From positions 18,972,001 to 19,036,000 of the forward strand of contig OZ287752.1 of NCBI GenBank assembly GCA_965649765.1: a DNA stretch of 64,000 bases. Direction: 5' to 3'. The notes under the pieces were generated by a model. It was given only the letters and a program-made list of their open reading frames with translations. It was not told the DNA's origin and made no database searches. Of this stretch, positions 7,523 to 64,000 are shown piece after piece; the first letter of the stretch is position 1, and the number at the start of each line of letters is the position of its first letter. A program made the position numbers and the translations under genes. The stretch comes from Bispira polyomma (lineage: Eukaryota).

Positions 7523-7679
7523 GTAGCAGAGTCAGTCCAGTAAAACTTCTCCAGGACTCAATTATGTCAGACAACAAGCAGAATAAAAAGAAAAATAAGA
7601 AACAAAATGCAAGTAATAATGAACAGTGTGTAAGCCCGTTGGTTTTAAGGAAAATTGAGACGGGAAAATAGATAATTTT

Positions 7680-8372
7680 TTGATGAAAAAAGTTAACGGT
7701 GACCAAGAAGAAACTATGGCGGAAGGCATTGATTCAGAGAATTTGCATAAAAAAAGTAGTCCAAGCCCGAGTTTACTGAGTGAAGAAAGTGACCTTGATA
7801 TCAAAACAGTGCTAAAAACAATTATGACAAAGCTCGAAACTGTAGATCAGATAAATACTAAAATAGACAAATTAATGACATATATGACTCACCTCAAGTC
7901 TGAAGTAAACGAGAATAAAGCTGACATAAAAGCTTTAAACGAATCGGTCCAGTTTTCTTGGATGAAAACCAAAAAGCTACAGGATGAAGTAAACTCAGTT
8001 TCTACCTTTCAACAATCAAGGGCAACTGATACAGTGGACCAGAATCAAATTAAAAGACTAGGGAGCCAAATGGAGGACATGGAGGCTTATTCTAGGAAAG
8101 ACAATTTTATTTTTTATGGAGTACCAGAAAGTGCAAATGAAACTTTGTATGATATTGTGATGACAATTTTGGTAAATAGATTAAGCATCTCAGACGCGAA
8201 ACAACCTAGTGCAAGGAGCACCAACAGTAGACCAATCTTTGCCCATTTACATTACTTCCTGCATGCCATGGAAGTGTTCAAGAAAAGATCGCTATTGAAA
8301 AAGCAGCCAAACCAAGATGGAGCTACCATAGCACAAGAGGCTACTGGAACATGTACTACAATGACATTATGA
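7680..8372 (+). CDS. L1-type ORF1p (coiled coil + RRM), decayed
   Basis: ORF track translation; SRKDN/YGVPE motif. Confidence 0.75.
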   Translation: MMKKVNGDQEETMAEGIDSENLHKKSSPSPSLLSEESDLDIKTVLKTIMTKLETVDQINTKIDKLMTYMTHLKSEVNENKADIKALNESVQFSWMKTKKLQDEVNSVSTFQQSRATDTVDQNQIKRLGSQMEDMEAYSRKDNFIFYGVPESANETLYDIVMTILVNRLSISDAKQPSARSTNSRPIFAHLHYFLHAMEVFKKRSLLKKQPNQDGATIAQEATGTCTTMTL

Positions 8373-12325: not shown

Positions 12326-12624
12326 TTTACGTTTTTATTACTAGCCTTTCCGTGGCTATTTTTTTAAACAACTTGTGTTTATGTTTTGTTACACAAACTG
12401 GCCCAATCAGCCCTCCAGTTATCGGTATGTACATGTTTAATGACTTTGTGACACACAGTTCTGTCTTTACAGGTGTCCTCATATTCACACAATACGTGTC
12501 TACAAATAAGTGTCTACTAACATTTTGGCACTACATTTTTGCAGTACACTATTCATTTCTGGACTCAATATGAGAGCGACTTCAGCCATGCAGGTCATAC
12601 ATAAGTGTAGATACATTTCCCCTC

Positions 12625-12792
12625 AGTAGTCAAAAATGGTTGATGATATAATTTGATTAGTGCCAGACAGAGACCTGTAAGGAGTTTGATAAGTTTGGAA
12701 ACTAGATGCTGTTTGGGATGTATTTATTTCTATCTAATGCCTCTATGTACAACTATACAATTAAAATTTTAGTTAAAATTTTAAAATGCCAA
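12625..12792 (-). repeat. YR-1 terminal repeat B2 with AATAAA
   Basis: Matches 13467-13634; tttatt on the + strand at ~12723. Confidence 0.92.
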
Positions 12793-13246: not shown

Positions 13247-13634
13247 AAAAAGACGTGTTGCTTACTTAACTTGCAACTTAATAATGCCTTTCTATGATAA
13301 AAGGGCGGCAAGGAGTTTACTCTGAAGGAAGGTGATTGGTTGCCTGGTTTAAATGACCTAAAGTCTGATTGGGATAGCTAGGTAAACACTTCTTAAGGGG
13401 GGTTTTACAGTAAAGTATTCAATTTTTGCTACTGACTTGCCATGCTATACTAGCAGTGACATCAACAGTAGTCAAAAATGGTTGATGATATAATTTGATT
13501 AGTGCCAGACAGAGACCTGTAAGGAGTTTGATAAGTTTGGAAACTAGATGCTGTTTGGGATGTATTTATTTCTATCTAATGCCTCTATGTACAACTATAC
13601 AATTAAAATTTTAGTTAAAATTTTAAAATGCCAA
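13247..13634 (-). repeat. YR-1 internal B1-A2 junction repeats
   Basis: B1 13467-13634 directly abuts A2 13247-13466; junction reads gactACTGTtgatg in element sense. Confidence 0.92.
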
Positions 13635-13641
13635 AGCCAAA

Positions 13642-14618
13642 TTAGAAAGTAGAGGAGACAATGGAGGAAAAAGTGGAGGGGATGATAGAGGCTGCGTGAG
13701 AGGTGGATTGTAAATATGACCAGACAGCATCGGATTTCCAGCACCCATGTTTTTGTATATCTTGAAGTTTGATATTAGAATTAAAGGCTAGAGAGGCTCC
13801 AGAGCGACGGAAGCAGTGAAATGAATGACCTATGTGTGGAATGTCAAGGTGAGTGAGGATGTTCTTGAGTGTAAGTCTAAGCTTGGTGTCTGATAAGCAG
13901 TTTCCTCTATCACACGGGTTGGCCAGTAATGGGGCCATGGAGTGTAAAGGGTATTTGTTAAATAAAGCTGTGGCAGCTCTGACAGGACATAGCCAGGGGT
14001 TTGATAAGGAAGGTAGTTGAATGATGTCTGGATTTGCCCTACTTTGGTTAGTTTTACTCCATTTAAGGATAAGGTGAATACCTGGTGGGGCGAATACTAT
14101 GTCTGCCCTTGTGAGGTGTCTTGTAGGGTCAAAAAGTGAACCGGAGGTAGTAGTAAGATTGGAAATTCTGAGGAACCCAAAGAAGGCGAAAAGAAAAGCT
14201 GTCCTGTATAGCTCAGGGAAATGAAGTAAATCACAGGCTTGTGAAATTTTTTCCAGTTGTAGTAAGTCAAACACTCCCTTTATTCTGGGGGTGTATTTAG
14301 AGGTGAGTTCTAAGGACCTAGTGTACAAGGTCAGTCTGGGGTCATAAAGACCTGTGTGTAGTATATTCAATAGTTTGGCATTGTGTCTTAGAGCTGATAT
14401 GTAATTTGCAATCACTTTGTGGGATTTCCCTGTTTGAGTCAGGAACTCTAGAAATGCCAAAATGGTGTTGAAACTGAAGGTATGATGTAGATCATAATAT
14501 ACAGTGAAGGCTAAAAAGAGTCTGAATTGGCTGTTGTATTGTCTCTGAGTTCTAGGTCTGTGGCTCTGTCGTAATCTTGTGAGGGCACCTTGGATCAGTG
14601 AATTTGAGTCAGAAGTGC
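13642..14618 (-). CDS. YR-1 tyrosine recombinase (frame open from the splice acceptor at 14619)
   Basis: Catalytic set R (FLRISNL), K (WSKT), HxxR (HCFRR), HGCW, Y (WSYL); the reading frame extends upstream of the called TTG start without an ATG. Confidence 0.93.
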
Positions 14619-14624
14619 CTGAAA

Positions 14625-17204
14625 TTATAAATAAGTATCTAATGTAAAAAAGTTAAGAGGAATGTTATGCATGGTGAAGCTGTGAGTGACGGTTGCCCTT
14701 ATGTGTTCACCCCCCGTGTCGAGTTCATACCATCGCGAAAGTGCGTCAGCAATGATATTTTCCTTACCTGGGATGTGACTAATGACAAGGTCAATGTTTT
14801 CTGCTGCACAAATTTGCCAAATATTCCTTAAACATAGTCCTAAGTAAGTGTCTTTGGTTTTTGATGACTGCACTACAGACACCACGGCCATGTTATCTGA
14901 CTGTACCTTAACTTTTTTGTTTTTCCATCTGTGACCCCATAGTTTGAGAGCAATTAAAATGCTCACCATTTCAAAATGTACGATTGATAAAGTATGAGAC
15001 ATGAAGAGAGGAAGGGGAGTTTTAAACACGTTTTTGTTCCATATACCTCCAATGCCAGATAAACAAGCGTCAACTTGTAGTAGGGCGTCGTGTGGCTTGT
15101 TTATGTAGTTATAAGTAGTAGTACCGTTAAACTGTAAAAGAAATGTTACAAACCAGGCGAGGTCTTGGTGGAATTCCATATTCAAGATGACTGTGTTACT
15201 GCTAGTGGATTGGCGTAATAATGCTAGCATCCGATTCATAAATATACGAGAGGGTTTAATACACCGGTGAATGTAGAGGAGCTTTCCTAATAGTGACTGG
15301 TATTTTTGTTTACGTACTTTATTTAGGTATTTAAACCCAAGACAGGTATCATAAATGGAAATCAATTTATCCTCGTCAATACTGAGAGTTTCGTTGGTGA
15401 TATCAATGGTAATGCCCATACAAGTGACACGTTTACTGGGGGGGACTAGCTTTTTTTCGTTTATGGGGAGGCCTAGATCTGTGAGAATTTCTTGCAAAGT
15501 ATTGTAAGCTAAGGTAGCCCTATCTTCAGATTCTATGAGTATGAAGTCATCGATGTAGTTGTATACTGTGAAGCCTTTAAGTTTCATAATATAAATCACG
15601 CAATCTGAGGCCATCATAAAGACTGCTGTGCCATGAGTTAAGCCAAAAGTCAAGGTTAAATCTATGTAATAATTATTTTTCCAAAAATATCCGAGTTTAA
15701 GGCAATCATAGGGGTCAATTCTGATATTTCGAAATGCGTGAGAAATGTCCACTTTTGCTAAGGTGGCCTTAGGTCCAATAGCCAAGATTTGAGAAGTTAT
15801 TTGATCAATAGATGGGAGTTTTAGGTTGAAATCTATGTGGTCATACTTTGTTTTTACAGTACAATCATTCACGGATTGGCCTGCAGGGTGAGATAAATCT
15901 AAGACTAACCTACGTTGGTCAACGTCCTTGGGAACTGTCAATAAGGGAGAACAGTGTAAATCTGGATGTAAGTTATCGTTAATGGGGCCAATTATGGTAC
16001 CTCTGTGGACCTCAGTAATGAAGTATTTGTCTATTGCCTGAGGGAAAGCTTTGGCTGAGTAATGATTTTTGACATTTGTGACGTGTAGTCGGTCCCTGTC
16101 GTATAAGGAAATGGGGAATCCGAATTCTATGTACTGTAAAATGATTTTGTCTGGGTAGTCAACCAAATACTCTTTCCATTTAGCTACGTTGAGGTTGCTC
16201 TTAAGTGGTATACGTGCTGATTTATAGTTGGGGACCTTAGTGGTTTTAATGATGTTGGCAACTTCTAGCAGTTTGCCATACGAGTCAATGTTGACCTCTT
16301 GTCTAACAGGACCCATAAAGGTAAAGTTGTTATATCTGTGTGGAGTGTAACTAAAAGGTTTGTGTGTGTTGGCTAAAGTGTCCCCCTGTGTGTTGTTGTT
16401 CTTGGGAAGTACATGTGAACATTGTTGTGAAACTGCCTGAGTCATAACGACCTCATGATCTGTACAGTGTGTGTGTGTGACAGTAGTATGAGGGTTGTGA
16501 GTGTGCAAGTTGCGTGATGGCATTACAAGTTCTACAGTAGTTGTTTTTGCTTGTGTGAGTGTCTGTTCATCACGTCTACATAAGCTGTCAATGATGTCAT
16601 TGTAATACAAAGTGCTACCTAATTTAGTACGTGTGTGTGAGAGTTGTTTGTCTAATCTCGGTTTTGTGAGTTTCTTTACTTGGGAGAAGTTCCTGCCTGA
16701 TTCTGAGATGTGCATAGAGCAAGAGTAAATTATGGGCCAAATGTGTTCTAATGACCAATCAGATAGTTGGAATGTCCAGCTATCTTGTACAAAGTTGCAC
16801 ACATAAACGCCCGACAGAGATGTATCTTGGCGACATACTAGGTAACAAAGGTTTAACGTATTACAGCCATGTTGACTGTTACTGAGATATATATCACAAA
16901 GTTTAGAGTCACAATGTAAACTGTTATCAGCTGTATATGTGATAACGTTGTCTATAGTGCCTGGGTAGGCGGTTAAGCTTGCATTAGTATTTTTAACTTG
17001 ATCGTTGTCAACACTTGAAATAATAGAATGATTACAATCTGATGAAGTCTGTGACCTGTTAATCTTACTGTCTACAGAGAATTGTTCGATATTACTGTTG
17101 TCAACACTAACGCTCAAACTGGATATAAAATTAGGGTTCTCATAATCGTCTACCTTATAAATTTGCTTAGAAGTACTATTAATCTCATCATTCTTCAGGC
17201 TCAT
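14625..17204 (-). CDS. YR-1 reverse transcriptase + RNase H
   Basis: KVDISHAFR, LTFGL, YIDDF; RNase H motifs DACLSG, HFEM, SDN, IADALSR. Confidence 0.95.
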   Translation of the reverse strand: MSLKNDEINSTSKQIYKVDDYENPNFISSLSVSVDNSNIEQFSVDSKINRSQTSSDCNHSIISSVDNDQVKNTNASLTAYPGTIDNVITYTADNSLHCDSKLCDIYLSNSQHGCNTLNLCYLVCRQDTSLSGVYVCNFVQDSWTFQLSDWSLEHIWPIIYSCSMHISESGRNFSQVKKLTKPRLDKQLSHTRTKLGSTLYYNDIIDSLCRRDEQTLTQAKTTTVELVMPSRNLHTHNPHTTVTHTHCTDHEVVMTQAVSQQCSHVLPKNNNTQGDTLANTHKPFSYTPHRYNNFTFMGPVRQEVNIDSYGKLLEVANIIKTTKVPNYKSARIPLKSNLNVAKWKEYLVDYPDKIILQYIEFGFPISLYDRDRLHVTNVKNHYSAKAFPQAIDKYFITEVHRGTIIGPINDNLHPDLHCSPLLTVPKDVDQRRLVLDLSHPAGQSVNDCTVKTKYDHIDFNLKLPSIDQITSQILAIGPKATLAKVDISHAFRNIRIDPYDCLKLGYFWKNNYYIDLTLTFGLTHGTAVFMMASDCVIYIMKLKGFTVYNYIDDFILIESEDRATLAYNTLQEILTDLGLPINEKKLVPPSKRVTCMGITIDITNETLSIDEDKLISIYDTCLGFKYLNKVRKQKYQSLLGKLLYIHRCIKPSRIFMNRMLALLRQSTSSNTVILNMEFHQDLAWFVTFLLQFNGTTTYNYINKPHDALLQVDACLSGIGGIWNKNVFKTPLPLFMSHTLSIVHFEMVSILIALKLWGHRWKNKKVKVQSDNMAVVSVVQSSKTKDTYLGLCLRNIWQICAAENIDLVISHIPGKENIIADALSRWYELDTGGEHIRATVTHSFTMHNIPLNFFTLDTYL

Positions 17205-17267
17205 ACGATAAACATGAGGTACATTGAAGTCACAACTGGTGGTGGTGGCTGTAGGCAGTTGGTGGTC

Positions 17268-18605
17268 CTATTGTGTGTTCGATGTAGGGGTTGGACGCCC
17301 ATGCAGTTTAAAACATTTTGTCTCCGGATGAGGGTTGGATTTTCTACTAACCCGGAAACAGTTGGCACAAATGTGCTTAAAAAGAACGTTATTCCCCTCG
17401 TGGTCTTTCTGATGTTGGCATTGGCCTTTCTGAAAGTGCCTGCAGGGGATTTCTTGTTTAGTCGATGCAAAGAGAGTGGTGTTTGTAGACGTGTTGTTGG
17501 AGACGAGGGCTTGGGAGTACGAGAGCCTGTTTAGGGTCCACTTCGTTTCATTGAGCCAGCTGAGGCGACCTTCCTCGATGTCGTGCATGTTGCACGCGTA
17601 AGCCCCACGAGCTATCTGCCAAGATATGTTTGAGGCGTCTCTGAGAGTATCTGCCAACTGAGTGAGCATTGCTCTGGAGATAGATTGATTCTGGACCTCT
17701 AAAATGTTTTGAATTTGTCCGGCAGCGAATTGTGGGATGGTAAGGTCGTCGAAAGAAACACGTTTTTTATTTATACCTGAGAAGCAAGCCTCATTGGGCC
17801 AGCGTTTCATCGGATCAGAGACACACACATCTGAGACATTGTAACGACCAGACTTTTTCTTGGTGGCAAGCTTACCTTGTAAGCCTTCGTCCGCAGCCCA
17901 GGCCTCATAACGTGCTAAGCGGAGAGATACTTAATTTTGTATTAAGGAGGACTGCTTGAGGACATCTGGTGTTGGTAAGATGGCGTCCTGTAGCGCTCGC
18001 TGTGTGTTGTCAGTGTTAGCAACTCTCTGTGGTTGCATCTGAGCTGCTATGTGAGATTGAGCGTGAGGCTGAGGTAGAGGGTGAGATGTGTAGGTGAGCG
18101 ATGAAAGATCGCTGTGTGCTTCATAGCCTGGTAAACTAAGTGATGCTGGGTGTACTGGTGTCGTGTGAGGTGGGTCTTGAAGAGTTTGCATGTTGTTTCC
18201 TGGGTTGAGACGCCGAGGAGTGACTGTAGGACGAGCTGACGGGGTCGTTACGGACGGCCTTAGCATGGGTAACTGAAGAACCGGAGTCTCGGATTGCTTA
18301 GCTTTAAGGTCAGAAACGTCCTCTTGTAACTTTGACACAGTAGTAAGTAATGTTTGCATCATGGCTTGCTGCCTGCTATGTATGTCACGGTAAAAATTTT
18401 CGGAACTTACTTTATCAGAGCAGTTACTGATGGAGTCGCTGTCAAGGTTATTTTCTGCTCCCAAATCTTGGTCTGGTAAGGGTTCTTCTTCAGGAGATAC
18501 CATGACTCTATTGCATCTAGTCCCAACCGGGCGAGTATGCGAAATGTCACATCTCGAGCACATAGCTACATTCACGGCGGGTTGTCTTTTTTTACCTCTC
18601 CCCAT
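17268..18605 (-). CDS. YR-1 Gag-like ORF1 (N-terminal CxxCxxxHxRPVGxxC finger, coiled coil, C-terminal CCCH and CxxC..H..C fingers); nonsense codon at 17931-17933
   Basis: ORFs 17931-18605 and 17268-17828 are in one frame, separated by a single TAA; homologous to YR-2 Gag. Confidence 0.85.
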
Positions 18606-18778: not shown

Positions 18779-18998
18779 AAAAAGACGTGTTGCTTACTTA
18801 ACTTGCAACTTAATAATGCCTTTCTATGATAAAAGGGCGGCAAGGAGTTTACTCTGAAGGAAGGTGATTGGTTGCCTGGTTTAAATGACCTAAAGTCTGA
18901 TTGGGATAGCTAGGTAAACACTTCTTAAGGGGGGTTTTACAGTAAAGTATTCAATTTTTGCTACTGACTTGCCATGCTATACTAGCAGTGACATCAAC
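18779..18998 (-). repeat. YR-1 split direct repeat A1 (probable promoter: two CCAAT boxes, one GC box)
   Basis: Matches 13247-13466; contains gattgg twice and gggcgg. Confidence 0.9.
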
Positions 18999-19889
18999 TA
19001 GTATCGTGATCACCCTTGTTAGGGCATCATGCTTTCTAGTAAAACCTGCAGGATACCCTGTCATTTGTTTTCCATGTGAACTGTTGACTAGAATGTGCAT
19101 TTTGGCTAGTATTCACTATTTTTTGAGTGAGAGCTCTGCCAATGCGGTTAATTTTGGCCATCTCATGCCAGGTGACCGTTTGCAGCATTCTAGAAAAAGT
19201 CATAGCTGTCTTCCTTTAAATCGGGTACATTATCAAGCATAGCATTTTTAGTGTCAATTGTACATTGTACAAGATTCATTTTGCAGCCCTAAAATGAGGC
19301 CACAGGCAAACTGGCGCTTAACCTATACCATTTCAAAACCAACTCTCTGAGATTTATAGTTCACAGCCTTCTGTCTTGAGAGTACTCAGTGAAGGGACCA
19401 GGATGTCTTCCATGTCCGTCACACGTGCAGCTGCCACTGGATCAGCTGGACATACTGGTATCTCCCTGTGGGGACCTCAGCCCTCTGTTCAGAGTAATCA
19501 ACACATACGTATATATTTGACATACACCCATTGAAGTCCCTTAGTTACTACTTCTTGTAGCCTGTATAAGTTTACTTCAACACTACTAATGTCACTGGCT
19601 GTATCACATGGTTTAGAAACAGTTTTCATTAATTTGCTTTATGTGGCTTGTGATACAACCCATACAACTAAAGTTTTTTGTGGAGGTATTTTGAAACATG
19701 AGATCAGATGATCATTCGGATTACAATTAAATGAAATACAGCCTTCAAATATAGCTCCAACAAAAGAGAAGAATACACCAAATTTTTTCAAAGCATTTCA
19801 CAAAAATACTGTTATTTTTAGGTATTTTTAACTTATATTTTCAGTTATAAATAGATTACACATATTGGTGTAAAGTCAGATAAAAGAGC

Positions 19890-24260: not shown

Positions 24261-24335
24261 TACAGAGGTGTGAATAGCTTAAATTATAGTAATGGGACCC
24301 TCTGGTAAAACATCACATCTGATGTAGTCATAATT

Positions 24336-25270
24336 TTGGTTATCCTCATTGAAAGACTAAAAACCTGGTTTGGTCTTAAGGACTCTGTCTTAAAATGGTT
24401 TGTTTCCTACTTGACAGACAGGTACCAGTCTATTAAAATTGGCGATATTCTGTCTGACTTACAAGTGCTGAAATTCGGTGTGCTGCAAGGGTCTGTGCTT
24501 GGACCACTCCTATTTTCATTATATACTACACCCCTTAGCAAAATTATTTCCTCCTATTCTTCTCTAAAGTATCACTTCTATGCAGATGATACACAGATTT
24601 ACGTACACCTTACTCCTAACACATCAATCGGTGCCCTGGAAGTCCTTCACAAATGCTTAGCAGATGTTCAAAATTGGATGGCGCTAAATAAGCTCAAGCT
24701 GAATCCTGCTAAAACCGAATTCATACTGTTTGGGTCGGGCACTCAATGTGCTGAACTGTCAAATTCTTTTCCTGTAAATATTCTTGGGACACTGTTATCC
24801 CCAACTGATAAAGTGAGAAACCTGGGAGTTTTGTTTGACAGTGATATTTCATTATCCAGTCATATCCAATCAGTGTGTAAGTCATGCTTCATGGATCTCA
24901 GAGACCTTAGGAGAATCAGGAGGTACCTTCCAAAATCGGTTGCAATAACTGCAGCAAATGTCCTGGTTGGTAGCAGACTGGACTACTGCAATTCACTGTA
25001 TTGCAGCTTGACCAAAAAGGACCTAAAAAAATTGCAATGCATTCAGAACTCATTGGCATGTCTGGTCAGTTGTTCTGCTCAGCTTTCAAATGCTTCATCG
25101 ATTCTGAAGTTACTCCACTTTTGCAAATGATGCCCCTACCCTATGGAATAGTTTGCCTCAACACATTAGGACAGCTCCGTCCCTGTATTCCTTTCGGCGC
25201 ACTTTAAAGACCTATCTGTTCAATGATGCATTCCCTCCATAGTCTCTTTCCCATTCTCGGTGGACGCATT
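24336..25270 (+). mobile_element. 5'-truncated L2-clade LINE (RT C-terminal part)
   Basis: GVLQGSVLGPLLFSLYT, YADDTQIY, LKLNPAKTE, SRLDYCNSL. Confidence 0.92.
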
Positions 25271-25399
25271 GATGATGACTTACTTCTGTCTATCACCTAT
25301 GTTTTTCGACTCTGGCTGTGGTTTTTTTGCGCCTTAGAATTCGTTACAACTAAAATAAGCGCTAAAAAGTCTGATATATTATCACACCTTGGTTTCTGA

Positions 25400-28253: not shown

Positions 28254-31200
28254 CTAACCAATGACTTCGTATGTCACATGCTAAAAGGGAAGTGGAAGAA
28301 CTTGATAACACTTAAAGTACAGACACAAATTTTATGTGATATTGCTGGGTAGTTTTGCAAAATGACAAATAAGTATTCAAGATGGATCTTATAATTATGT
28401 AAAAAATGTGTTAATATGACATGCAACACAGCTTTGAGTTATACAGGGGTAACCAAACAGAATCCTTGCCTTCAAGTCAGCATATTCACCAGGGGCTCCT
28501 GGTTCCTCAGGTTTTGTCATTTCATACAGAGCATTTTCCTTATTTGCAACAACATTTTCATATGAAGCTGTGGGATGATCATTTTCAGACTAAAATGCAA
28601 TGTGCTTTAGAAATATAAAGGAAAAAACTGAGGTATAAACTACAAAGTTATTTAGATTTTTCCACGCAGTACACAAGTGTAGTTTGCCTGTTGCCGGATG
28701 ATCATTGTCAGACTAAAATGCAATGTGCTTTAGAAATATAAAGGAAAAAACTGAGGTATAAACTACAAAGTTATTTAGATTTTTCCACACAGTACACAAG
28801 TGTAGTTTGCCTGTTGCCGGATGATCATTGTCAGACTAAAATGCAATGTGCTTTAGAAATATAAAGGAAAAAACTGAGGTATAAACTACAAAGTTATTTA
28901 GATTTTTCCATACAGGACACAAGTGTAGTTTGTTTGTTGTGTACCTAAAAATGACTAATAAACCTTTTCACTACTCATGTACATTTAACTTGCACCAAAC
29001 ATTATGACTGACATATCTGCAGTATCTAGTAAGCCCTTGCCTTGAAAGTTATCATTGTCCCCAAATGTTTGCTGATCTGGTACTGGGTATAAGCAAAACG
29101 GGACCACCCATTTTAGTGGTCATTTCGGCCATTATTTATATACCTGTATCTGATACAGAGTTTACATCCACTATGGTCCATAATAATTTTTGTCCACTAG
29201 ACCACAGTAGCATTTAAAATTGGTAACACAATGAAAAATGAGCTTGTTACAGGGTGTAGGTGTGCAATTATATGGTTTGATTTCAACACAAGATTTCAGG
29301 GTTTTGCACCCCTGATGATATTTGAAAAATTCGTTGATGAACTGTGTAAATATGTGTACAAGTAATGTATTGTTACGTATGTGAGATATTTCCACAGCTA
29401 TTATTTTATCTTGTCTATCTTTGCAAAATTATCACATTAATACTATTTTCCCGAATAGTACTTACATGTGAAGTCTTCTTTATAATGTGTATCCTAAGCT
29501 TCCCAGTTTTGTATAATATAAATGTCGCAACAAAAACAATGATTAGCAATCCAGCTATAATCGAAATTACCACTAGTCCAGCAATAAATGCAATATTTCT
29601 ATCAGTTTCATGTAGGACATCTATAATATTATAGCAATAAAAAATTGTATTAATTATTGAATAAGTCCAAGATGACAATTATTAAATTATATTTTTCCTA
29701 TATTACTACGAAGTATAAAATGTAAATATACCTCTTTTGTCAATCACAGTAAACATCTTCACTAATACCTTGTCTTCATCCTGAAAGACCATTATAAAGT
29801 AAGTATATTCTGGATAACCTTCACTTAGTGCCAAAGAATTGTCGCTTTTTGATGTAACATTCAAAATTGCAGTGCAGTCTTCTTCCCCATAGCTACACAT
29901 AAATATGCCAACATAACTATATATTCCTCCTATAGTGGACCACTGAAATACCCAAATATCTTCATAAATGTTAATAGTTGGTACATCCTGTAATAATGGT
30001 CTAGCTAGAAATACAAAGAAAAACATTTTAATCTTTGAATTTGTACAAAATGTATAATATGTGAAATATGGTATTATCTATCTAGGCACAATAATGCAAC
30101 TTATACCTAATGTAGATATTGAAACCTCAGGCTGAGGAAGACTTTCACCCCATTTATTTGTGGCTTGAACCTTGAAGTAATAATTGGTTTCTGGTTGTAA
30201 CTCTGTCACTTTGTAGATAATTCTTTCATTTCTTCCCAAGTCTTCAATTCCTTGCTGGTATAAAAGGTTACTTTCCCCATCTTTCCTGTGATATACGATA
30301 AATGTCTGCATGCTTCCTCCATTTTTGCCAGACAACCATGACAGAGTGATAGATATGGCTGTAACTGATTCAAATAACACGGAATGTGGAGCCTCAGGAA
30401 TACCTGAAATCATTAAACATAAAACATATAACTAAACTACTTAGTTCATATAACATTGATAATATGGCATTAAGGTTGAAAACCAGTGTATGCCAAACTA
30501 ATTACCCTTTTCAATAAGATTCAGCTGTAGTGTAACTTCCTCTTCAACATTGTTGTTCATCGTCACCTCATACAGACCAAAATCACTAATGGTTACAGGG
30601 TCAAAAGTCAGTTGTAACAGAGTCTCATCAACTCTATTCTCCACTGTCTTAACTATTAGATTCTCTGGAGAAATGATAGAACCCTCATGCTGAATGGTCA
30701 CATGTTTGCGATTAACTGCTGGATAGGCCTTTACTGTACAATTTAGTAAGGCCACTTCGTTTATTCCAGAGTATGTCACTTTCTGTATAGATGAACTAAC
30801 ATCAACTGGTGAAACTGAAATGGTAAGCACAAATTTGCATCACTCACATTAATACCATTAAAGTAGTACCTTACAATTTACAGAAAAACAATAGTAGGTC
30901 CTGCCAAATATTGTGCACAAGTCGCTTCCAAATGTCTTTTGAACTGATTAATTAAATAGCCAATCGTGAGTCACTGCCAGGTTGGCCTTTACTTTACAAT
31001 TTAGTAAGGCAACTTTGTTTATAGTATGTCACTTTCTGCATAGATGAACTAACATCAAGTGGTGAAACTAAAAAGGTAAGTACTAATATCAGCATACAAC
31101 TTAATATCATTGATGGTTCATTCCCGACCAAAAATTTGGATTATAGGTATTTATTGCTAAATTAACACACTACATTACACTGTTCAAATACTTTTACTAC

Positions 31201-34200
31201 AATTATTCACACATCACACATTAGTAGCCTCAGATATGTACACTTCAGTCTGTCTGTACTTTACACTGTCTACCTGTACTAAATTTGCTAATACAATACT
31301 CACACTGTACAAGTAATTCTCTGCTATCACTGTTTACACCTCCCTCATTTGTCACCTCACACATATACACTCCTGCCTGCCGGTACTCTACACTGTCAAA
31401 CTCTAACTCTTGATCTGTGTTGCTATTTAGCTCACTGCTCTCTCTATACCGAGGTACAAAACTCCAGCTATAAGACAACACTTCCACAGGGTTACCTCCT
31501 GTAGCTTCACAGGTCAAGGTCAGACTGCTGCCTGATTCAGAATCTGAGGGATTCTGGATGACTTTAACATCATGTGGGACTGAAATCATAAAAAAATTAA
31601 TGAACATGTATGTTATATTAATCTTAATTAAGTACTGCTTAGAGTGAATATATTTATTGTACTGCATTATATAATTATATTTACAGCATTTCTTTGACCT
31701 GATAGGGCTCTATATAAATCTGATATATTATTATATTTGCCAGTGTACTAATATTGGGAGTTATGTAACTGTAATATTAAATTCAGAGAACTATATTTGC
31801 TAGATATTGTTGTAATAATTATTATTTTCATGGGTTAATTTGACTGTTACATACTTAATATATATATATCATATATATTTTACAGTCCATCTACGCAAAA
31901 GAGTCATTACACCTAATGACTCATACCTTACTCATTGCATAATGATTTGTGGTTCATAATTACACGGATTGCCTGAATAGTAATACAAGATTTAGGCAAT
32001 CTGTTTACTGGTATTAAGAGTAATATTTCATCATAATATGTTGTTACATAGGTGAAAAATAAATTGATATCTAAATGTATTAAAGATAATAAATTAATAC
32101 TTGTTACAGACATATCTGTTTTATACTACTGCAAGAGTTTTTTACAATATCAAAGTAATGACTGCTTTCACAGATTGGCTGTATCATATACATATGGTGG
32201 ATGATAATAATAATAAATTACATGATTCACATCCCTCCTGTTATTCGGGTGTCACAGATCCTGACCTTAACTAGACTCTACATGGCATTGGCCATCATCA
32301 ATCAAAAGATAATGACACATTCCAATATTGCACAATAATGTTATCCTCCAAGACTAACTTCCTAACCATAACGGCACAAGAGACCATATGAATATAAAGC
32401 AAGAAATATTTACAAAATACATCTGCATAAAAAAATTACAATGTATTATTTTCAAGGTTGGTGAAAAATCAAGAGAGATATTGGATACTGATATTAGTTA
32501 TCAGAGTGTTACTAATTGTTTTCTCATTATACAAATTTGCCAAATAGGGTATAATATATTGACTTAATCTAACATCCAGTGTGACTGTATCTCTGCCTAA
32601 ATCTCACTAACACAAAACTTCACCTAAATCTATTACTTATATCTAACATCCAGTATAACTATGTGTCTCACTGCTGACTTCTCACTAACAGAACACTCCA
32701 TATAAATCAATGACTTATATGTAATTTACAGTATTACTATATTTCCCACTTCTGACTAATACTAAATAACACATCAACTACATCTATTACTTACATCTAA
32801 CATCCAGTATTACTGTATCTTTCACTGATGACTTCCCATTAACATAACACACCACCTCCTTGCCATTCAGTGTTCCGTCTACTGTTAGCTGTAACACACT
32901 TGTCCTAGTTTCTGTATTATACATCCCCTCCTCTGTTGTGTCACTAGTAGAACTATCACTATTCCCCACTACAGTCCACAACACATCAGCAGTAGGTTCA
33001 GACTCATCAGTCACACACATGAAGGTCATTACTGTGTTTTTGGAGACTGGACTAGAAGGAGACTGTGTCATAGTAATACTAGAGGCTGAAACTGAAAATG
33101 CAAAATAATGACATGAAATATGTTGTTCTAAATCTATTGTCTGTTGTTCTATCTGTAATTTCTAGATTTGCTTTAAAGTGGCTGAAAGAAAAAACAAAAA
33201 GAGAAACTAAACCCTTCCTTACATCAGTTGGCACAAATCCCACTTTGATATAATGCTTGCCTGCGAAACGTAAATCGGGACGTTATAACACATCAGAAGT
33301 TTGTGTAAATGATCACATAAAACGTTGGCCAAACGAATCATGCCTGTTCGAGGTATGCAAGGAGAGAGTTTGCTTTGATGATCTGACAGTTTCACAGTTC
33401 ACGGCAGGCCAGATACAAAATATTCTATTAAATTAAAAACTCATCCATTTTGCGAGCTATGCTCACACACTTAGCAGACAATATATCTTGGGATATTGCC
33501 CGTGGAACTTATGCAAGCAACATGTATGATGTTGAAGAGGGTCGTTTGAGTTGGACCAACAAAACGAAATGGACTATGAACAAATTATCATATTTTCAGG
33601 CTTTAAATTCCAACAACACAACCTCAAATAGCTCGTCTGCAACATCGTCAACAAGCAAGCACAAAATGTTTTGCAGACACTACCAAAAGAACCAGTGTCA
33701 GCATCAGAAGGACCATGAACGGACTAATACAACTTTTACAAGAAATTCTATCCGTATCCAGAAGCAAAATTCTACTAAATTCACAGATGACCAAGCACTA
33801 CTAGTACTACTGCAAACGCATCCCAATAGGATTTTGGACTGCCCCCAGTCACCGCTGCCAGTTTTTTAGACCTCATTTCAAATCTTGACACTACATTATG
33901 TGTGAGTAACGGTTACTTCATTTATAACTCTCCTTATTATTTAGTTTGTCATGATTATATATGTATTTCAGGTGTGTACACTTTGACTTATATTCAAGGT
34001 CATGATTACTTCCAAAAAGCCACACACACATTGGACCAAATTTGGCTAATAACTTATTTAGACACCATGTCTATTTCAGTATTTTATAACTCTGTTTTAA
34101 ATCAAAAACAGCAAATAAGGAAGACAGTTTTAGAACCACTACTACACACATGCACATACCAAAGAAGGAAATAGTACACAATATTTCACAGATATCATAG

Positions 34201-37200: not shown

Positions 37201-40200
37201 GTTGTGTTTTTTTTTTGTTTTTTTTTAATGTTTCTTGGAACAAAACAAGTTAACAACTGTTTTGAATGATTTCGGTGGCTCAGATAATTGGAATTGCCAA
37301 TAAAATGTACTATTGCGACAAGGTTATGTTATTATCTATACTTTTGTTTTTTATTTTTTTTTTATTTTTTGTTGTGATCACTTATGTAATGGGTGGTTTT
37401 AAAATTGTTGTATTTTAAAAATTGGTTACTTTTTAACCCAACCTGTAAATACCTATATCTAACATGTATAGGAAAATAAATACCTCAAACCGTAGTTTCA
37501 TACATTTATACGTTATATAATAATTTATCACATTAACTTTTAACTTGACCTTCACATCTTCACCATAGGGGAACAGTCTCTGAAAAGAGCATTTTTGCCA
37601 ATACTCTGTATTGGCTGCGTCTTACAACCCTGTGGTAGGAGGTTGTTGGCTTCTTCTTGCCATGGCACTGAACCTGCTGGGATGCTGTTGTTATGCTTTA
37701 AATACAGCCTTTGCCTTTTTGCTAATACGGTCAGCCGGTTGCCATGTTGTGGATCCCCCAAGTCTACCATGTTTTTAGGATTCCTCAACCTTCCCCTGAT
37801 CAAACTGGTCACTGATGAGTGTGTTCCTGAGAACAGACTCATTGAAGATCTGGGCATCTAAACAGGACCCATTGCTTCCAAAATCCAGCCATACTTATAG
37901 TCCAAGTCCACTAAAGCCAGGAGAACCATCGAGTGAAACCCCTTGTAGTTGCAATAGATGGAACCACCCCCTGAAGGACACTAGATTGCCACAGGTTTTC
38001 TATCTATAGCAACATGGGTATAATGAAAGTTACAGCTATTGGAGAATCTCTAAGTCCCATTCGGCTGGTGTGGTTGGCAGGCGAATGACCTTGTGTATGT
38101 ACTCTACAACTACAGCATTACAGACTTCCTTCATAATTCCAGCAATAGTGTTGTGGGTCACGCTGAACCCATACATCAAACTGTAATAACTGTCACCTGT
38201 AGCTAAGTGACTCAAGGTGATTGCAAGTCTTCAGCCCACACTTATTGGTTTTCTGGCAAAGGAAACTTTCTTTGATATCAGTGGGCCAACCCTATTCGGT
38301 AGCTCTTGGAATGCTGGATCCGTCCTGCTGAAGTTTCTAAATGATGCAATGTCTTCTCTTTCCAGCTCTGCTATGAGGTGATCATACTGGCTAAAGATTG
38401 GCCCACAAATAAGCCATGGTCGAACCCAGCAGTTTCTTGGTCCACCTCTACATCCCCTATCTGTTGACCATCTTGCACAACAGTTAGTGCCAACATATCT
38501 GTCTCTAAGTCCATCAAAATTTTATTGTAGAACTCTACAGCAATCATAACACGTCATTGATCCAAGTTGTTGTAATAAATATTTTTTTGTTATTATTAAA
38601 TATATATATGTTCTCTCTCCAAAATTGCAATCATTAATGAGAAAAGTCTGTGAAATGGTGATTATTATATAGGTTTTCGAGATAGGTGCGTGAAAACGTC
38701 ACGGCAATGTTAGACAGCATTAAAATGGAAGTACTGTTTCGATCACCAACATATCTAGAAAGGAGATTCCGGAGATAAAACAAATGCATCGGTTCGACAT
38801 CGGTTGTTATACGGTACATCTCCAGATGAAACCGTGCAGAGCAAGATAGAATAATACATCATCCGGATAATTCGAGGAGTATTCGTTTTGTATACGGATC
38901 ATTAACAAATTGGCAACGGCTTGAAAAGGCAGACATTGTAACAGAAACGTATTGGATGTTAAAAATAGAACGGGGTAGAGTGAAAATAAACTAGATTTGA
39001 TCTGAGTTTATATACTTAGGGAAAGTCCGCAAGTAAAAGTATCAGTCAAAAGAAAGCTCCTGTATACATTGTTGCATCAAGCTATCTCGGATTTTTATAA
39101 ACAGGATGCTTGCAATACTTTGACAATCCACGAAATATAGGACTGTCATTATAACCAGTGAATTTCATAAGGATTTACAGTGTTTATTTTTCGTTTTCTT
39201 ACAGGATTTAACAGTACTCCTATATATAACTATGCAAACAGGAATAATGTTACAAGTTGACGATTGCCTGTCTGGCATTGGTAGCATTTCGGATAATAAA
39301 GTGTTTAAATATCCTTTACCCATATTTATGGCTTACACATTGCCAATTGTCTATTTTGAGATGGTAAGCGTTTTAATTTATTAAAAACTATGGGGTCACG
39401 AATGAAAAAATAAAAAAATTTAATTTTAATTTAATTAAAAGTTAATTCTGACAACATAGTTGTGGTGGCTGTTGTGCAGTCTCCCCAAACTAGAGATGAT
39501 TATTGGAGGTTTATGCCTTTATGTCATATATGGCAAATTTGAGCTGAAAAAATATTTAAATATCAGTCATATTCCAAGAAAGTAGAATTTTATTGCGGAC
39601 TCTCTATCACGATGGTTTGAATTGGAATATTAAGCAACACATATGAGTGACTTTATTACAGACAGCTTATTAATGTATGACATTCCCATTGACTTATTTA
39701 CTCTTGGCAGTTATATACAGAAAGAGTCAGAAAAAATCAGCTAGATTACTGGTGCCAGGTGCATTACGACATGTAGAACAGAGTCAGACACCACAAACAC
39801 AGAAAGAGTATGACAGCCAGTTTTGACATTTTCTGAGTTTCATAGTATACTATGACTTACAACAGACTTTCAGTTTTAACAGCATTATAGTTTTCTTTGA
39901 ATTTCTAACACAATCGGGAGTTTCAAACAGAGTTATCAATAATTATCTCTCAGCTTAAAGGCATAACACCAAGGTGTTAAATATTTATCATACAGGACTT
40001 TATGATCCCAGATTGTCCAGATTGTCCAGATCTCTAGAACTCATCTCAAAATACACACCAGTGTTCAAAAGGGTTTTTGATTTACACCAACTATTACAAA
40101 TTTCACATACTTGTGAACAATTTCAGTGTCCAGAATTGTTTAGAACAGCCTTTTTGTTTGCTTATTTCGTTTTCCTACGGATCTCAAACCTCAAACCTAC

Positions 40201-46200: not shown

Positions 46201-49200
46201 CCGAATGAGCACAGAGGTTAGACAGCCTCAGAAAGGAAAAGAAACTGGTAAGATAGACTGCTTTAAAAATTTGACCCATGTAAGTACTGTTGCACTTTAT
46301 AATAAGAGACCTTAACAACTGAACATCGAAAATTGACTTAAGTTTTACTTGCAACGGTCTATGCATCCCCAAAGCTTTATTATAATAGGTAATTCTTTTA
46401 TCAGAAAAAACATCTACGGATATATGGAAGAGGACACACTTAGCCTTAATGGCAGAAAGATGATTAAGAACTTGACTAGCCGACACACCATTAAACGTTA
46501 AAAACTCTAAATAAGCTAAGAGATATAACACAGTCACCTTTTGAGGAGGCCAAGACATAAAGGCTCCAACCGCCAAGAACAGCCTGAACATTCTGTTGTA
46601 GGCTCTGTTAGTGGCAGGGGTGAAGGCAAGTACAAGTCTGTCACAAGCTTTCTGCATCAAGGAGATGGCCACAGGTTGTATATCTAGAAAACATGACTAA
46701 CATGTGCTATATAAGTGAGTTAACTTTTAATAAACTGCGGCAAGCAGGCAGCCACTGGACAGGCCCAGCTAACCTAAATAACGACAAATGGTCGGCTTCA
46801 GTTTCCTTCCATCTTGACAGCAAATCTGCAATTTTATTTTCTTTACCCAAAATATGTACGACAACAATATCAATACTAAACTTGCTAGCTAACATGTATA
46901 TGTTCCTAGAATACGTGGCTAATTCGGGATCTCTGGTGCGCCCTGTCTGTAAGACACTTACAACTGCCTGATTATCACATCTGACCAATATTCTACGACC
47001 TTTCCATTTATGAACCCACAATTTTAGAGCTACCAAGATGTTAAGCATCTCCAAAGAAGCAATATTGACCTCAGTCATTTCTGGAGGAATGTTAATTTGG
47101 TACACTTGTTTCTCAAAAATACCCCCCATTCCAGTAAGGCAGGCATCCAATTCAATCTCACCAGTTATGGGCTTAGGCATGAAAAAAGAGACTCCATTGA
47201 AGTGTTCTGCAAAAGTAGTAAACCAATTCAAGTCACGCCTGAATTCAGGGGTGATGGCGATATACTTTCTGGTGTAATTATCTCGTAACAGCTCCAGCAT
47301 CCTATTCAAAAAGACCCGAGCATACTTTACACATTTAGAGATATATAATAACAAGCCAAGTAAAGACTGGAGCTCTCTCTTAGTGCAGAATTTTTTGGAT
47401 TTCCATTCGTGACACTTATCTTTAATTTGACTTAATTTCTCACCCGGGATGGAAGTAGTACCTAGAATGGTATCCACTACTATGCCCAGGCAGACGACCT
47501 GCGTGCTGGGAGGAACCAATTTTTTCTGACTTACTGTCAACCCCAACTCTTGTAGCAGTTCTTGCAATCTGAGGAAAGTTTTTTGAATTTTGCTGGGAAC
47601 AGAAATAGCCAAGAAATCGTCGATGTAGTTGTGGACATTATGATTTTCAGAGTGCATTATGAATCGCACGGCATCCGAAATTCTCTGAAAAATCGTGCTA
47701 CCATTACGATATCCGAACGGCAGAGATCTGTCCACATAATAGGACTTCCACTTTAGACCTAGGAGGTCAACGTCGCCAGGGTCAATGGGTACGTGGCGGA
47801 ACGCCCTACTTATATCGACCTTGAATATCTCACATCCTCTCCCCAATTTTACCACCTCACTAGTGAGATTATCAATGGACGGATAAGACAGTAGAAATTC
47901 AACGCCCAAGTAAGAGGAAGGAGAAGCTCCCGCATTAACCGACCCCCCTTGAGGCCAACTCAAGTCTACAATTACTCTCCGGTTAATTGAGTTCGGTTTG
48001 TGTCTCGTCATAAGGGGAGAACAGTGCAGGCCCGGAAGAGGAGGTTTGTCAAATGGCCCTAACATGGCGCCGAACTCACATTCTTCTTTCATATAAGCCT
48101 CTACATGCTGTGGATATTCCTCAGCCGACTTATGGTTACTCTCACTGGATTCCAATTTTACTGAATGATCGACGTCCAGGGGAAATCCATATTTTATGAG
48201 GAGAGGCAATTGCCAATCCCAGTAATTTTTGAGGTATTTTTTCCAACTCTCGGGTCTTAATTGAGAGGGAACAGGGATTTGCAACCCTTCATAATTATGC
48301 CTGCCGTCAGCCCGAATTAAGTCATGCATTTGCAAAATGGAAAGTTCGGGCCCTCCCTCACCCTGATCTGCCATCTCACAGCCCAGAGCAGAGAGAGGAG
48401 TGAATCCATATGCATGTTGGGTTTGGGCTTGCCATTTTCTGTAAGTAGGATTTGAGGCAGCCTTAGCTAACATGCCTTTCTTATTTACTTTCTGTTTCAA
48501 GGCACAAGAGTACTTATCGGGACATTCGAGACTTTCCGGGCTATCTTCGGAAGCAGTTTTACTCCTGCCCTCGCCTCGGTCAACGGGCTTGTCACTAGGG
48601 CCAGAAAGGAATCGAACGGGCTCGTCCACATTTTCACCGTCATCGACCGACAGCGACACTAAAGCTGTATACCTGTTAGCAAGAGGGAGGACAGCCACAC
48701 CCCCATTGACCCGCCTCTCTTCGCCCCCATTCAACCTCGAGCACTTGACCTCCTTTGTTATCACCTTGCCTTGTTTCGCACCCCGGCCTGGCTTCACAAT
48801 GGAAGTCCATTGTCCCACAGAGGTACCAAGGGGCCTCAACAATGTGTCACTTTTGCCACGTAATATGTCTACCTTACTCTTGTCAACCCTTGCCTGTTTT
48901 ACCGGCACCTCATTAGCACTTCTATTTACACACCCATACTTTTGAACTGGGCCATTCTTTTGCAACGCCTGGCTATAACTCAAGTCTGGCCTAGTGCCCT
49001 TCACATATTTACACGTTTTTCGCCACACAGACCTCTCAAATAATTGTGCACTCTTAAATTCAGTATTATAAACAAACCTACATTTGTGCTTCCCACTTTT
49101 AGCCACTGCATTAACGCAGTGGCCCCTCAGTTTTTTGCCCCTTTCTTATGACATTCACTAGTCTGGTGGCTACCCTCACATGTCTCGCAATGATGTTTAT

Positions 49201-62195: not shown

Positions 62196-64000
62196 CTAAT
62201 GAATGACATTATATGTCATATGCTGAAAATGATATTGGTGGGTAGCTTTGCAAATTGACAAATAAGTATTCAAGAAGAATCTTACAATTATACCAAAAAA
62301 TGTGTTGATATGACATACTATAGCAGACAGTTTTGAGCTATGCTTGGGTGACCAAATAGAATCCTTGCCTTTAGGTCAGTGCATTCACCAGGGGCTCTGG
62401 GTTCCTCAGGTTGTGTCATTTCATACAGAGCATTTCCAGTATTCCCCAAAACATTTTCGTTTGTAGCTGCAGGATGATCATTGTCAGACTGAAATGCAAT
62501 TTGCGAACTATAATGTAAAAAATTAGGTATAAACCATCAAGTTATTTCGATTTTTTCATACAGTTCACAGGTGTAGTTTATTTGTTTAGCACTCAAAAAT
62601 GACGACTACTTTTAACTACTCAAGTGCAATAACTAGCCTATAATTATAATCAACATATCTGTAGTAGTAAACCCTGAACTTCAAAAGTTATTAATGTCTC
62701 CAAAAGTGATCTGGTCTGCTACCAGAAATAAGCCAAAAACAATACAGGACCACCCATTCTAGTGCTCATTCAAGCCATTATGTATCTCCATGTAACTGAT
62801 ACAGAGTACACAGCTGCTATGGTCGATAATAATTTTGTCTACTAAGGCACAGTATCAAACAAAATTGGTAACATAATTAAACATTTGGAAGGTATGAAAT
62901 TGGAGTATGTGAATGAATACAACACACTACAGTCCCCACAGCCTCTATATAGGCTATCAGTATTTATTTCACTGGGATGTTTTGATAGGCAGGCAGGATC
63001 TGGACAGTCTTCCCAGCAACGGATACCAAATTTTGTTCAAACTAGTTTTCAGAAACCGTGAGGCCAATGAGGTTCCTATTTGGCACACATGTTTGTTAAA
63101 AGGGTGTCGATTTCTATGGTGTGATTTTACCCGAATAATGTAGGGTTTCGGCATCCTCGATGTAAGTAATATATTGTTATTTATATGATAACTGCAAGTC
63201 TATATCTTATTCAATTTTGTAGAATTATAAGATTAATACTATGCTACAGAATAGTGCTTACATTTGTAGACTTTTTACTGTGTATCCTATGTCTGCCACT
63301 ATTTTACAATATAAATGCAGCCACAGCGACAATAATCAGCAATCCAGCTATAATTGAAATTACTACGAGTCAAGCAATGAATGCAATATGTTTATCATCA
63401 GTTTCGTCTATTGCAATAAAAAAAATTATTTCAATTCATAAATAAGTCTAATATAATATTAATTCAATTGTATTTACAATATGTAACCACAAAATATAAA
63501 AGGTAAATATACCTCTTTTGTCAATCACAGTAAACATCTTCACTACAACCTTGTCTTCATCTTGAAAGGCCATTATAAGGTAAATATATTCTAGATAACC
63601 TTCACTTAGAGCCAAAGAATAGTGGTTTATTGATGTAACATTCAAAATTGATGTGCTGTCTTGTTCCTCATTGTTACACATAAATATGCCAACATAACTA
63701 TATATTCCTTCTATAGAAGCCCACTGAAATACCATCCTTTAGTAATGGTCCAGCTAGAAATACAAAGAAAAACATATATCTTCATCTTTGAATTGTACAA
63801 AATGTACAAAATGTGGAACTTGTTATTTTTTACATAGAGGCAATAATGTAACTTATGCCTGATGTAGATATCAAAATCTCAGGCTGAGGAAGACTTTCAC
63901 CCTACTAATTTGTGGCTTGAAGCTTAAAGTTATACTTGGTTTCTGGTTGTAAGTCTGTGTCACTTTGTAGATAATTCACTTATCCCAGAAGAATACATCT
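62196..64000 (-). pseudogene. Paralog 3 of the Ig-FN3-TM receptor (3' part; continues beyond the window), probable pseudogene
   Basis: Close copy of paralog 2: FN3 exon ~63860-64000 with indels, exon ~63512-63752, TM exon 63262-63407 with TGA and TAA stops, tail exons 62369-62488 and 62196-62222 (HMTYNVIH*); 3' flank homologous to 27500-28250. Confidence 0.88.

Follow-up and report, generated by a model that had tools for sequence, protein, structure and literature searches.

Introduction

Described readthrough systems differ in the reach of the RNA structure that accompanies the stop codon. In the tombusvirus carnation Italian ringspot virus, the polymerase is made by readthrough of UAG-G, and the PRTE-DRTE interaction, between a large local stem-loop and a replication element at the 3' terminus, spans about 3.5 kb (PMC3234231, PMC13517186). 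Luteoviruses and poleroviruses extend their coat protein through AA-UAG-G, with a proximal element and a distal element some 700-750 nt apart in the readthrough ORF; UAG-G preceded by AA is the type III readthrough context (PMC3159437). In gammaretroviruses such as MuLV, gag and pol share one frame across UAG-G, and a compact pseudoknot lies about 8 nt 3' of the stop (PMC3159437, PMC5009743). The Candida albicans retrotransposon Tca2, an LTR element with integrase, has a single UGA between gag and pol and makes Pol from the gag-pol RNA; its 300-nt junction alone directed no readthrough (PMC2194720).

Long-range readthrough stimulators are known from plant RNA viruses. In the literature excerpts considered, none was found described for a retroelement, no report was found of a distal partner for a retrotransposon gag-pol stop, and the question of how tyrosine-recombinase retrotransposons make Pol was not found addressed. 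The window analysed here, a 64,000-nt stretch of Bispira polyomma DNA, holds such an element, YR-1. Its Pol probably arises by UAG readthrough with a long-range RNA helix as stimulator, in the manner of a tombusvirus and not through a MuLV-type pseudoknot.

An Ngaro-type element

YR-1 and its decayed relative YR-4 are Ngaro-type tyrosine-recombinase retrotransposons (order DIRS) as assigned by structure, although structure alone can mislead in classing such elements (PMC4157794). YR-1 comprises the following features.

18779..18998, minus strand: split direct repeat A1 (220 nt; its copy A2, at 13247-13466, is 100% identical)
17268..18605, minus strand: gag, with a C-terminal zinc finger (1338 homologues; premature TAA at 17933-17931)
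14625..17267, minus strand: pol frame, with a variable linker, a lineage-specific N-terminal domain, RT and RNase H (methyltransferase not found)
13642..14652, minus strand: tyrosine recombinase frame, overlapping the end of pol (weak Pfam integrase matches)
12624..12792, minus strand: split direct repeat B2 (169 nt; its copy B1, at 13466-13634, is 100% identical)

Gag, RT/RNase H and the tyrosine recombinase lie on one strand in that order, the recombinase Pfam matches being below cut-off. The repeats run A1 ... B1-A2-B2, with the internal repeats downstream of the recombinase; split direct repeats of this kind also occur in PAT and VIPER (PMC6681497). Pol stops after RNase H, and Pfam returned only RVT_1 and RVT_3 and no methyltransferase domain, whose absence separates Ngaro from DIRS1 and PAT. 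This is the Ngaro arrangement of A1-gag-RT/RH-YR-B1-A2-B2 without methyltransferase (PMC4157794, PMC3783388). Whereas the literature excerpts considered give overlapping or frameshifted ORFs for Ngaro and are silent on Pol synthesis, gag and pol of YR-1 form one frame across a UAG.

Both copies are damaged. The premature TAA in gag, absent from the initial annotation of this DNA, makes YR-1 defective, and YR-4 carries several stops and frameshifts. YR-2 and YR-5 have lost their gag-pol junctions, and a sixth decayed gag in the window is interrupted by YR-1.

A conserved UAG between gag and pol

The initial annotation had placed gag and pol in the same frame with a single TAG between them, and this holds. 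On the minus strand, TAG at 17270-17268 is followed by an 880-codon stop-free frame (17267-14625) in which 21 codons, as claimed, precede the first in-frame ATG (17204). The claim that YR-4 keeps this context is also borne out: CAA TAG GAT at 33824-33832 is in frame with the end of a gag remnant and with pol-homologous codons.

17268..17273, minus strand: YR-1 gag stop, CAA-TAG then G, in frame with pol and kept in YR-4
17202..17204, minus strand: first in-frame pol ATG, preceded by two out-of-frame ATGs and without counterpart in YR-4
33824..33863, plus strand: YR-4 junction, CAA-TAG plus a proximal element (+8 to +34) with predicted pairing
49101..49136, minus strand: -1 frameshift signal of YR-3, with A_AAA_AAC at 49136-49130, the gag TGA and a 9-bp hairpin at 49124-49101

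Frame and stop context are directly observed: in both copies an in-frame UAG is followed by G and preceded by adenines at -1 and -2, as in the type III context. The two junctions share 29 of 42 nt, and 23 of 36 past the stop, whereas fourfold-degenerate sites in the YR-1/YR-4 DNA alignment are nearly saturated, with 60 of 158 identical (0.38). Against this silent-site rate, the junction identity has a binomial p of 4e-5 (42 nt) or 1.4e-3 (36 nt), for an interval picked after viewing. Contigs from three sequencing runs (two samples of one study, possibly the source) cover the element in more than 1100 pieces each. Among the rows listed, one contig each in X1 and X3 seems to cross the stop; their differences fall at 17207 and 17280 and leave 17268-70 intact, which is a hint only. 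Two loose contig ends suggest other gag tails ending Thr-CA; these ends stop short of the stop codon.

Homologues indicate that gag normally ends at this UAG, since homologous Gags end shortly past the zinc finger and no fused Gag-Pol was found among 1065 candidates. The longest Gag homologue among the 150 matches listed is 599 aa, and extended tails of database Gags gave no match to pol N-termini. A nonsense mutation in a fused gag-pol would fit the presence of another premature stop in YR-1 gag. That reading is largely refuted by a stop that keeps its position in a lineage saturated at silent sites and by Gags that end there without any fused protein found. The same verdict applies to a host that reads TAG as sense: in four long ORFs with 95 Gln codons TAG does not occur internally, and YR-3 pol uses TAG as its terminator.

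The start of Pol bears on whether it is translated separately, from the ATG at 17204 by reinitiation or from a subgenomic RNA, with the shared frame incidental. Taken by itself, a same-frame run of 21 open codons in YR-1 is not unusual, and in Tca2 a minor promoter sits in the junction, which failed to direct readthrough when assayed in a local reporter (PMC2194720). Yet the YR-1 ATG lies 66 nt from the stop, behind the two out-of-frame ATGs and with C at -3. In YR-4 the 79 codons after the stop contain no in-frame ATG; the first, at codon 80, lies beyond the residues aligning to the pol N-terminal domain. That match rests on tblastn to YR-1 and a multiple alignment; the domain profile alone did not detect YR-4 (E 0.25). 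Related pols have very different called starts, and in some the frame runs 42-46 residues above the one called. We consider separate translation very unlikely.

YR-3 offers a contrasting mode of recoding. Its junction combines a slippery heptamer with a hairpin (z -3.5). In the gag tree, the Lys-Asn tail of A_AAA_AAC shift sites is present in 14 of 15 rows of the YR-3 subclade and absent from 30 of 33 in the YR-1 clade; this is a quick tree of 105 rows that leaves out 50 of 153 database proteins (those whose zinc finger was not complete or whose upstream sequence was too short). The heptamer, hairpin and gag tree support the earlier proposal of two recoding modes in one locus, as -1 frameshifting in YR-3 against putative UAG-G readthrough in YR-1 and YR-4. 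Its term "sister" lineages was loose, as YR-1 and YR-3 are distant, with RT/RH 39% identical. The RNase H tree groups YR-1 with YR-4 at 98; the YR-4 row is partly out of frame and its long branch is an artefact. Related DNA for other lineages was not found in viral contigs or plasmids. Pattern matches in one metagenome and three prokaryote genomes were chance by tblastn.

A predicted long-range helix downstream of the stop

The conserved post-stop sequence is better explained by pairing with a distal RNase H site than by a local stem.

17233..17261, minus strand: 6-bp stem of the initial annotation, +7..+12 with +30..+35 around a 17-nt loop; weak, possibly an alternative conformer
17234..17259, minus strand: proximal element, nt +9 to +34 after the stop (core +9 to +26), predicted to pair with the distal element
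14867..14894, minus strand: YR-1 distal element, RNase H codons N-M-A-V-V-S-V-V-Q-S, complementary to the proximal element
39453..39481, plus strand: YR-4 distal element at the homologous RNase H site, predicted pairing

The local stem had been put forward as a gammaretrovirus-like stimulator. Six-base-pair stems can indeed be drawn in both copies and coincide with the two-sequence consensus fold, but they are weak, at -4.0 (YR-1) and -1.8 kcal/mol (YR-4). A 6-bp stem arises at the same position in 19% (YR-1) and 31% (YR-4) of 1000 shuffles, and local minimum free energies have z of -0.8 to +0.8 (-1.1 to +1.2 in a separate run). Local folding, with z about 0 and weak loop pairing nearby, revealed no compact H-type pseudoknot about 8 nt past the stop, so the MuLV pseudoknot lacks a counterpart in YR-1 and YR-4 and the proposed stimulator is unsupported. 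Pairing of the hairpin loop reaches -4.4 and -8.8 kcal/mol locally versus -19.2 and -18.2 with the distal site.

RNase H codons 2.4 kb downstream complement the YR-1 island from +9 on, and the YR-4 island is predicted to pair with the homologous site. As in tombusviruses and luteoviruses, a proximal element thus has a complementary, conserved distal element, here predicted in both copies at homologous sites. Like the conserved island itself, the reciprocal complementarity is directly observed: proximal and distal elements are each other's best partners in both copies. The helix has a predicted energy of -38.2 kcal/mol, against -30.1 +/- 2.3 for 30 shuffled queries. The observed energy was reached by 0 of 2000 synonymous shuffles of the distal site in YR-1 and 1 of 2000 in YR-4, by 0 and 1 of 2000 proximal shuffles, and by none of 60 shuffles of the whole pol. 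Of the 94,291 homologous window pairs in the YR-1/YR-4 DNA alignment, this one scores best (-28.6 versus -18.2 for the next). A 17-bp core lies in the minimum free energy structure of a 2468-nt fold with pair probabilities of 0.87-1.0, both elements being near the fold ends, which favours closure. Of ten tiles around the YR-1 stop, one beat every shuffle, as did none of six after the YR-3 junction. No distal partner was found for the YR-3 post-stop sequence, and in YR-3 and YR-2 different codons spell out a similar RNase H motif.

These comparisons come from two junctions of one genome, both in damaged copies. YR-4 retains 19 of the 23 YR-1 pairs (+9..+34) unchanged and one through a one-sided change, and breaks three; an outer extension (+35..+40) keeps one pair of six. 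No clean two-sided compensatory change was found between the two sequences, the distal site is also constrained as protein, and the YR-1 distal site was found after the fact. The proximal element of luteoviruses is C-rich. C-rich queries also meet G-rich partners by chance: the 45-nt YR-4 island reaches -36.8 with an unrelated insert versus -32.9 with its own distal site, and a 23-nt core reaches -28.4 with an unrelated site versus -28.9 with the distal one.

The helix might serve packaging, reverse transcription or splice control instead, with readthrough or another bypass stimulated by the stop context or the local stem. That stem dominates the first 45-90 nt of YR-1 (P about 0.93) and 45-60 nt of YR-4 (P about 0.5), both sequence changes within it keep pairing as G-U, and long-range pairings in RNA viruses have several roles (PMC3234231). 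Its energies, however, are no better than those of shuffles, the helix starts at a spacer typical of readthrough stimulators (7-9 nt), and YR-3 needs the same replication and splicing steps yet lacks such a partner. We regard a different role as unlikely, and rank it after the splicing scheme considered next.

Possible splicing and the unspliced RNA

The elements themselves may be spliced.

17870..17878, minus strand: strong phase-1 splice donor in mid-gag; the exon would end at 17876
14619..14640, minus strand: candidate splice acceptor in phase 1 where the ATG-poor recombinase frame begins

This is suggested by the strong 17875 donor and, in four of four elements, by phase-1 acceptors where the recombinase begins. 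Splicing could then also make Pol, joining the mid-gag donor to a phase-1 pol acceptor (CAG at +20..+22, or YAG at 16838 in YR-1 and 33944 in YR-4), with the stop intronic and the helix regulating splice choice. Both candidate acceptors are phase 1 in both copies, and the CAG could be a weak acceptor. On a crude, untrained scale, however, the +22 site scores 7.1 and 8.3, versus 10.6-11.5 for the recombinase acceptors (the median across all 369 AGs is 6.6), and this CAG is explained as the partner of a distal CUG. The 16838 site falls within the aligned N-terminal domain and leaves 143 open codons unexplained, and the TAG, which is in phase 0, comes 202nd of 222 when scored as an acceptor. Nor does splicing account for why stop, frame and spacer were kept. 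It is an improbable source of Pol, though the foremost of the alternatives.

Discussion

Readthrough with a distal stimulator remains our preferred account. Most ribosomes would halt at the gag UAG and release Gag, while a minority would read through into the same-frame pol and yield Gag-Pol. The stimulator would be a long-range helix, not a compact local structure, beginning 8 nt past the stop (7 nt in YR-4), its distal strand supplied by RNase H codons some 2.4 kb further on. Its unpaired state may correspond to the weak local hairpin, whose loop can also pair with the distal site. We infer three things: in vivo pairing of the helix, readthrough, and a causal role of the helix in it. Because the stop and both elements lie inside a putative gag-to-recombinase intron, only unspliced RNA that retains the RNase H region would make Pol.

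YR-1 departs from each known system. Unlike the large stem-loop of the tombusvirus, it has a short unstructured island predicted to form 17-23 bp with RNase H codons, in a nuclear retroelement. Compared with luteoviruses and poleroviruses, the distance is 2.4 kb and the product is Pol. Tca2 differs in its UGA and its LTR organization; a distal partner would be one candidate explanation for the silence of its isolated junction.

We lean slightly towards a broader scenario, in which a whole animal Ngaro lineage exchanged -1 frameshifting for UAG readthrough that needs an island/RNase H helix 2.4 kb apart. A retroelement would then carry a recoding signal of kilobase range, with Pol restricted to unspliced RNA with an intact RNase H region and the recombinase made from spliced RNA, giving three Gag-linked products through termination, readthrough and splicing. 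The predicted helix names exact nucleotides for mutation and rescue. If it is real, local junction reporters can miss retroelement readthrough, which bears directly on the case of Tca2, and tyrosine-recombinase elements would divide, like retroviruses, into frameshifting and readthrough lineages.

Results

An in-frame TAG between gag and pol is a real feature of two tyrosine-recombinase retrotransposons in the window. YR-1 (minus strand, 18998-12624, 6.4 kb) has split direct repeats (A1 ... B1-A2-B2) at its borders, each matching its copy at 100% identity. Its coding frames are gag, a pol of 880 codons that includes RT and RNase H, and one for a tyrosine recombinase; no methyltransferase was found in pol. 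By structure YR-1 would be an Ngaro element, following the criteria of PMC4157794, PMC3783388, PMC3266345 and PMC6681497. The nearest Atlas clusters to its pol are mostly molluscan among the few members having a taxon, which makes an invertebrate host likely. The copy is young but defective because gag contains a premature TAA (17933-17931). Its gag ends in CAA-TAG (17273-17268) and pol carries on in the same frame, with the first ATG 21 codons past the stop, as the initial annotation had described.

The diverged YR-4 keeps this junction, again as annotated. It lies on the plus strand in two parts (33.2-34.4 kb and 39.0-41.1 kb) separated by an insertion, and has CAA-TAG-GAT at 33824 in the frame of both its gag end and the codons homologous to YR-1 pol. 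The two junctions are identical at 29 of 42 nt, while the lineages agree at only 60 of 158 fourfold-degenerate sites, and ungapped identity falls off on either side.

The surroundings hold other elements and host sequence. At least five further YR elements or remnants are present. YR-1 interrupts an older YR gag, now decayed, at the zinc-finger end of that gag (19000-19300 and below 12624, minus strand); the target and the end of YR-1 are similar over a few bases. The 4.6-kb insertion in YR-4 (34420-39000) has an unexplained ORF (35470-35940), G-rich stretches and no match in Pfam. A 73-nt direct repeat (88%; 33191-33263 and 41242-41314) flanks YR-4, its first copy stopping where the gag remnant starts. 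YR-2 lacks gag and junction, and its pol is broken by a LINE-like RT fragment (24309-25360, plus strand). A coiled-coil ORF (7659-8372, plus strand), with weak coiled-coil hits only in Pfam, presumably resembles LINE ORF1. Host exons (28300-31700 and 62200-64000; 55786-56253) have translations that appear immunoglobulin-like; they are duplicated, the copies sharing 80-87% identity and lying about 33.8 kb from each other.

Gag normally ends at the TAG. None of the best 150 among 1338 Gag homologues exceeds 599 aa, and the majority of those whose zinc finger is complete terminate shortly past it. A word-based, so not exhaustive, search confined to proteins of 605-1927 aa found no Gag-Pol fusion in 1065 candidates. 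A sense reading of TAG was rejected for this DNA. Initiation of Pol at its own AUG fits poorly: in YR-1 two out-of-frame ATGs precede the candidate start, whose context is weak, and YR-4 offers no in-frame ATG before codon 80, which comes after residues aligning to the pol N-terminal domain common to relatives. In YR-1 that domain (residues about 120-235; 16300-16950, minus strand) is conserved in database relatives and YR-2, has no Pfam match and was not detected in YR-3.

YR-3 carries a frameshift signal in place of the in-frame stop. The heptamer A_AAA_AAC precedes its pol, which lies in the -1 frame, and 5 nt after the heptamer comes a 9-bp hairpin (z -3.5; none of 200 shuffles equally stable):

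49101-49136, minus strand: YR-3 -1 frameshift signal, a clean A_AAA_AAC plus hairpin

The YR-3 gag also has a premature stop (49436-49438). A_AAA_AAC encodes a Lys-Asn tail, which served as a protein-level proxy for the shift site in a quick Gag tree of 105 rows that left out 50 of 153 database proteins. The tail is missing in 30 of 33 rows of the YR-1 clade (support 100), present in 14 of 15 rows of the YR-3 subclade, and found in 41 of the 72 rows outside the YR-1 clade taken together. For the YR-1 clade the proxy shows apparent loss of the site, not clade-wide readthrough; the residue preceding the stop differs among its rows. A_AAA_AAC ranks among the most shift-prone heptamers (PMC5009743).

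The 6-bp stem just after the stop, annotated as a readthrough stimulator, is predicted to be weak. It can form in both copies (-4.0 kcal/mol in YR-1, -1.8 in YR-4) but does not hold up as a stable structure. It is the dominant fold if folding is limited to the 45-90 nt (YR-1) or 45-60 nt (YR-4) directly past the stop. The folding stability of the region does not exceed that of shuffled sequences, and comparable stems turn up in 19% of these for YR-1 and 31% for YR-4. No local pseudoknot was found after either stop.

A predicted distal partner in RNase H codons explains the conserved island just 3' of the stop. When the 45 nt following the stop were used to search the YR-1 transcript, a single duplex stood out at -38.2 kcal/mol, where 30 shuffled queries had best hits of -30.1 +/- 2.3; this duplex pairs +9..+34 from the stop with 14867-14894, 2.4 kb downstream. 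The homologous site is the best within-element partner of the YR-4 island, which can pair equally well with unrelated G-rich DNA. When the distal codons were redrawn with amino acids kept, 0 of 2000 draws for YR-1 and 1 of 2000 for YR-4 were as stable as the observed duplex; the counts were identical for the proximal codons, and for the whole of pol the count was 0 of 60. Scored by the weaker of the two elements, this pair tops 94,291 aligned homologous window pairs (-28.6 vs -18.2 for the best unrelated pair). The helix's 17-bp core recurs in a global fold of 2468 nt (probabilities 0.87-1.0), and among ten tiles around the YR-1 stop only the one holding it outdid all 12 shuffled pols; behind the YR-3 junction none of six outdid all shuffles. 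YR-1 and YR-4 are related sequences, not independent samples. Across 23 pairs, YR-4 leaves 19 unchanged, keeps one through a one-sided change and breaks three, with no clean compensatory change. A possible second helix would join the island's end (17226-17239) to 14925-14938 (minus strand), where Trp-Gly-His codons lie immediately 5' of the distal site. Its YR-4 counterpart would pair 33869-33874 with about 39391-39396, and the helix appears in the YR-1 global fold and one YR-4 duplex.

The recombinase probably comes from a spliced RNA in which a phase-1 donor at 17875 is joined to a phase-1 acceptor at 14619. This intron would take out the stop and both pairing elements. In-phase acceptors occur at the recombinase start in all four elements (YR-1, -2, -3 and -4), those besides 14619 being:

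22173: phase-1 recombinase acceptor
46684: phase-1 recombinase acceptor
39710: phase-1 recombinase acceptor

YR-3 has a matching donor near 49710. The YR-1 donor falls at a Gln-Gly-Lys motif of gag, and 49 of 85 database Gags have Gly-Lys at the same place. These phases suggest a spliced Gag-recombinase fusion. The main rival for Pol is likewise splicing, into the pol frame; its candidate acceptors are either weak or located in a conserved domain. The helix already explains the CAG at +22.

Discussion

Pol is fairly likely to be expressed by long-range-stimulated readthrough of the gag UAG. We infer every step, from termination and readthrough to recombinase splicing, from sequence. Termination at UAG would yield Gag, and the helix, starting 7-8 nt past the stop, would favor near-cognate decoding to give Gag-Pol. 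This spacing resembles that of 3' stimulators in MuLV (8 nt), furovirus (7 nt) and benyvirus (9 nt), as listed in PMC3159437. UAG-G contexts generally require a downstream structure, according to PMC13517186. The 2.4-kb predicted span compares with 3.5 kb for the readthrough structure of carnation Italian ringspot virus (PMC13517186 and PMC3234231).

In the literature library searched, no description of readthrough turned up for Ngaro or DIRS elements. In-frame junctions may be mentioned in Repbase entries, by Poulter and Butler (2015) or in the founding work of Goodwin and Poulter (2004, 2005). In Tca2, the junction alone gives no readthrough, though Pol derives from gag-pol RNA (PMC2194720). 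Tca2 is thus both a caution and a lead for reading YR-1.
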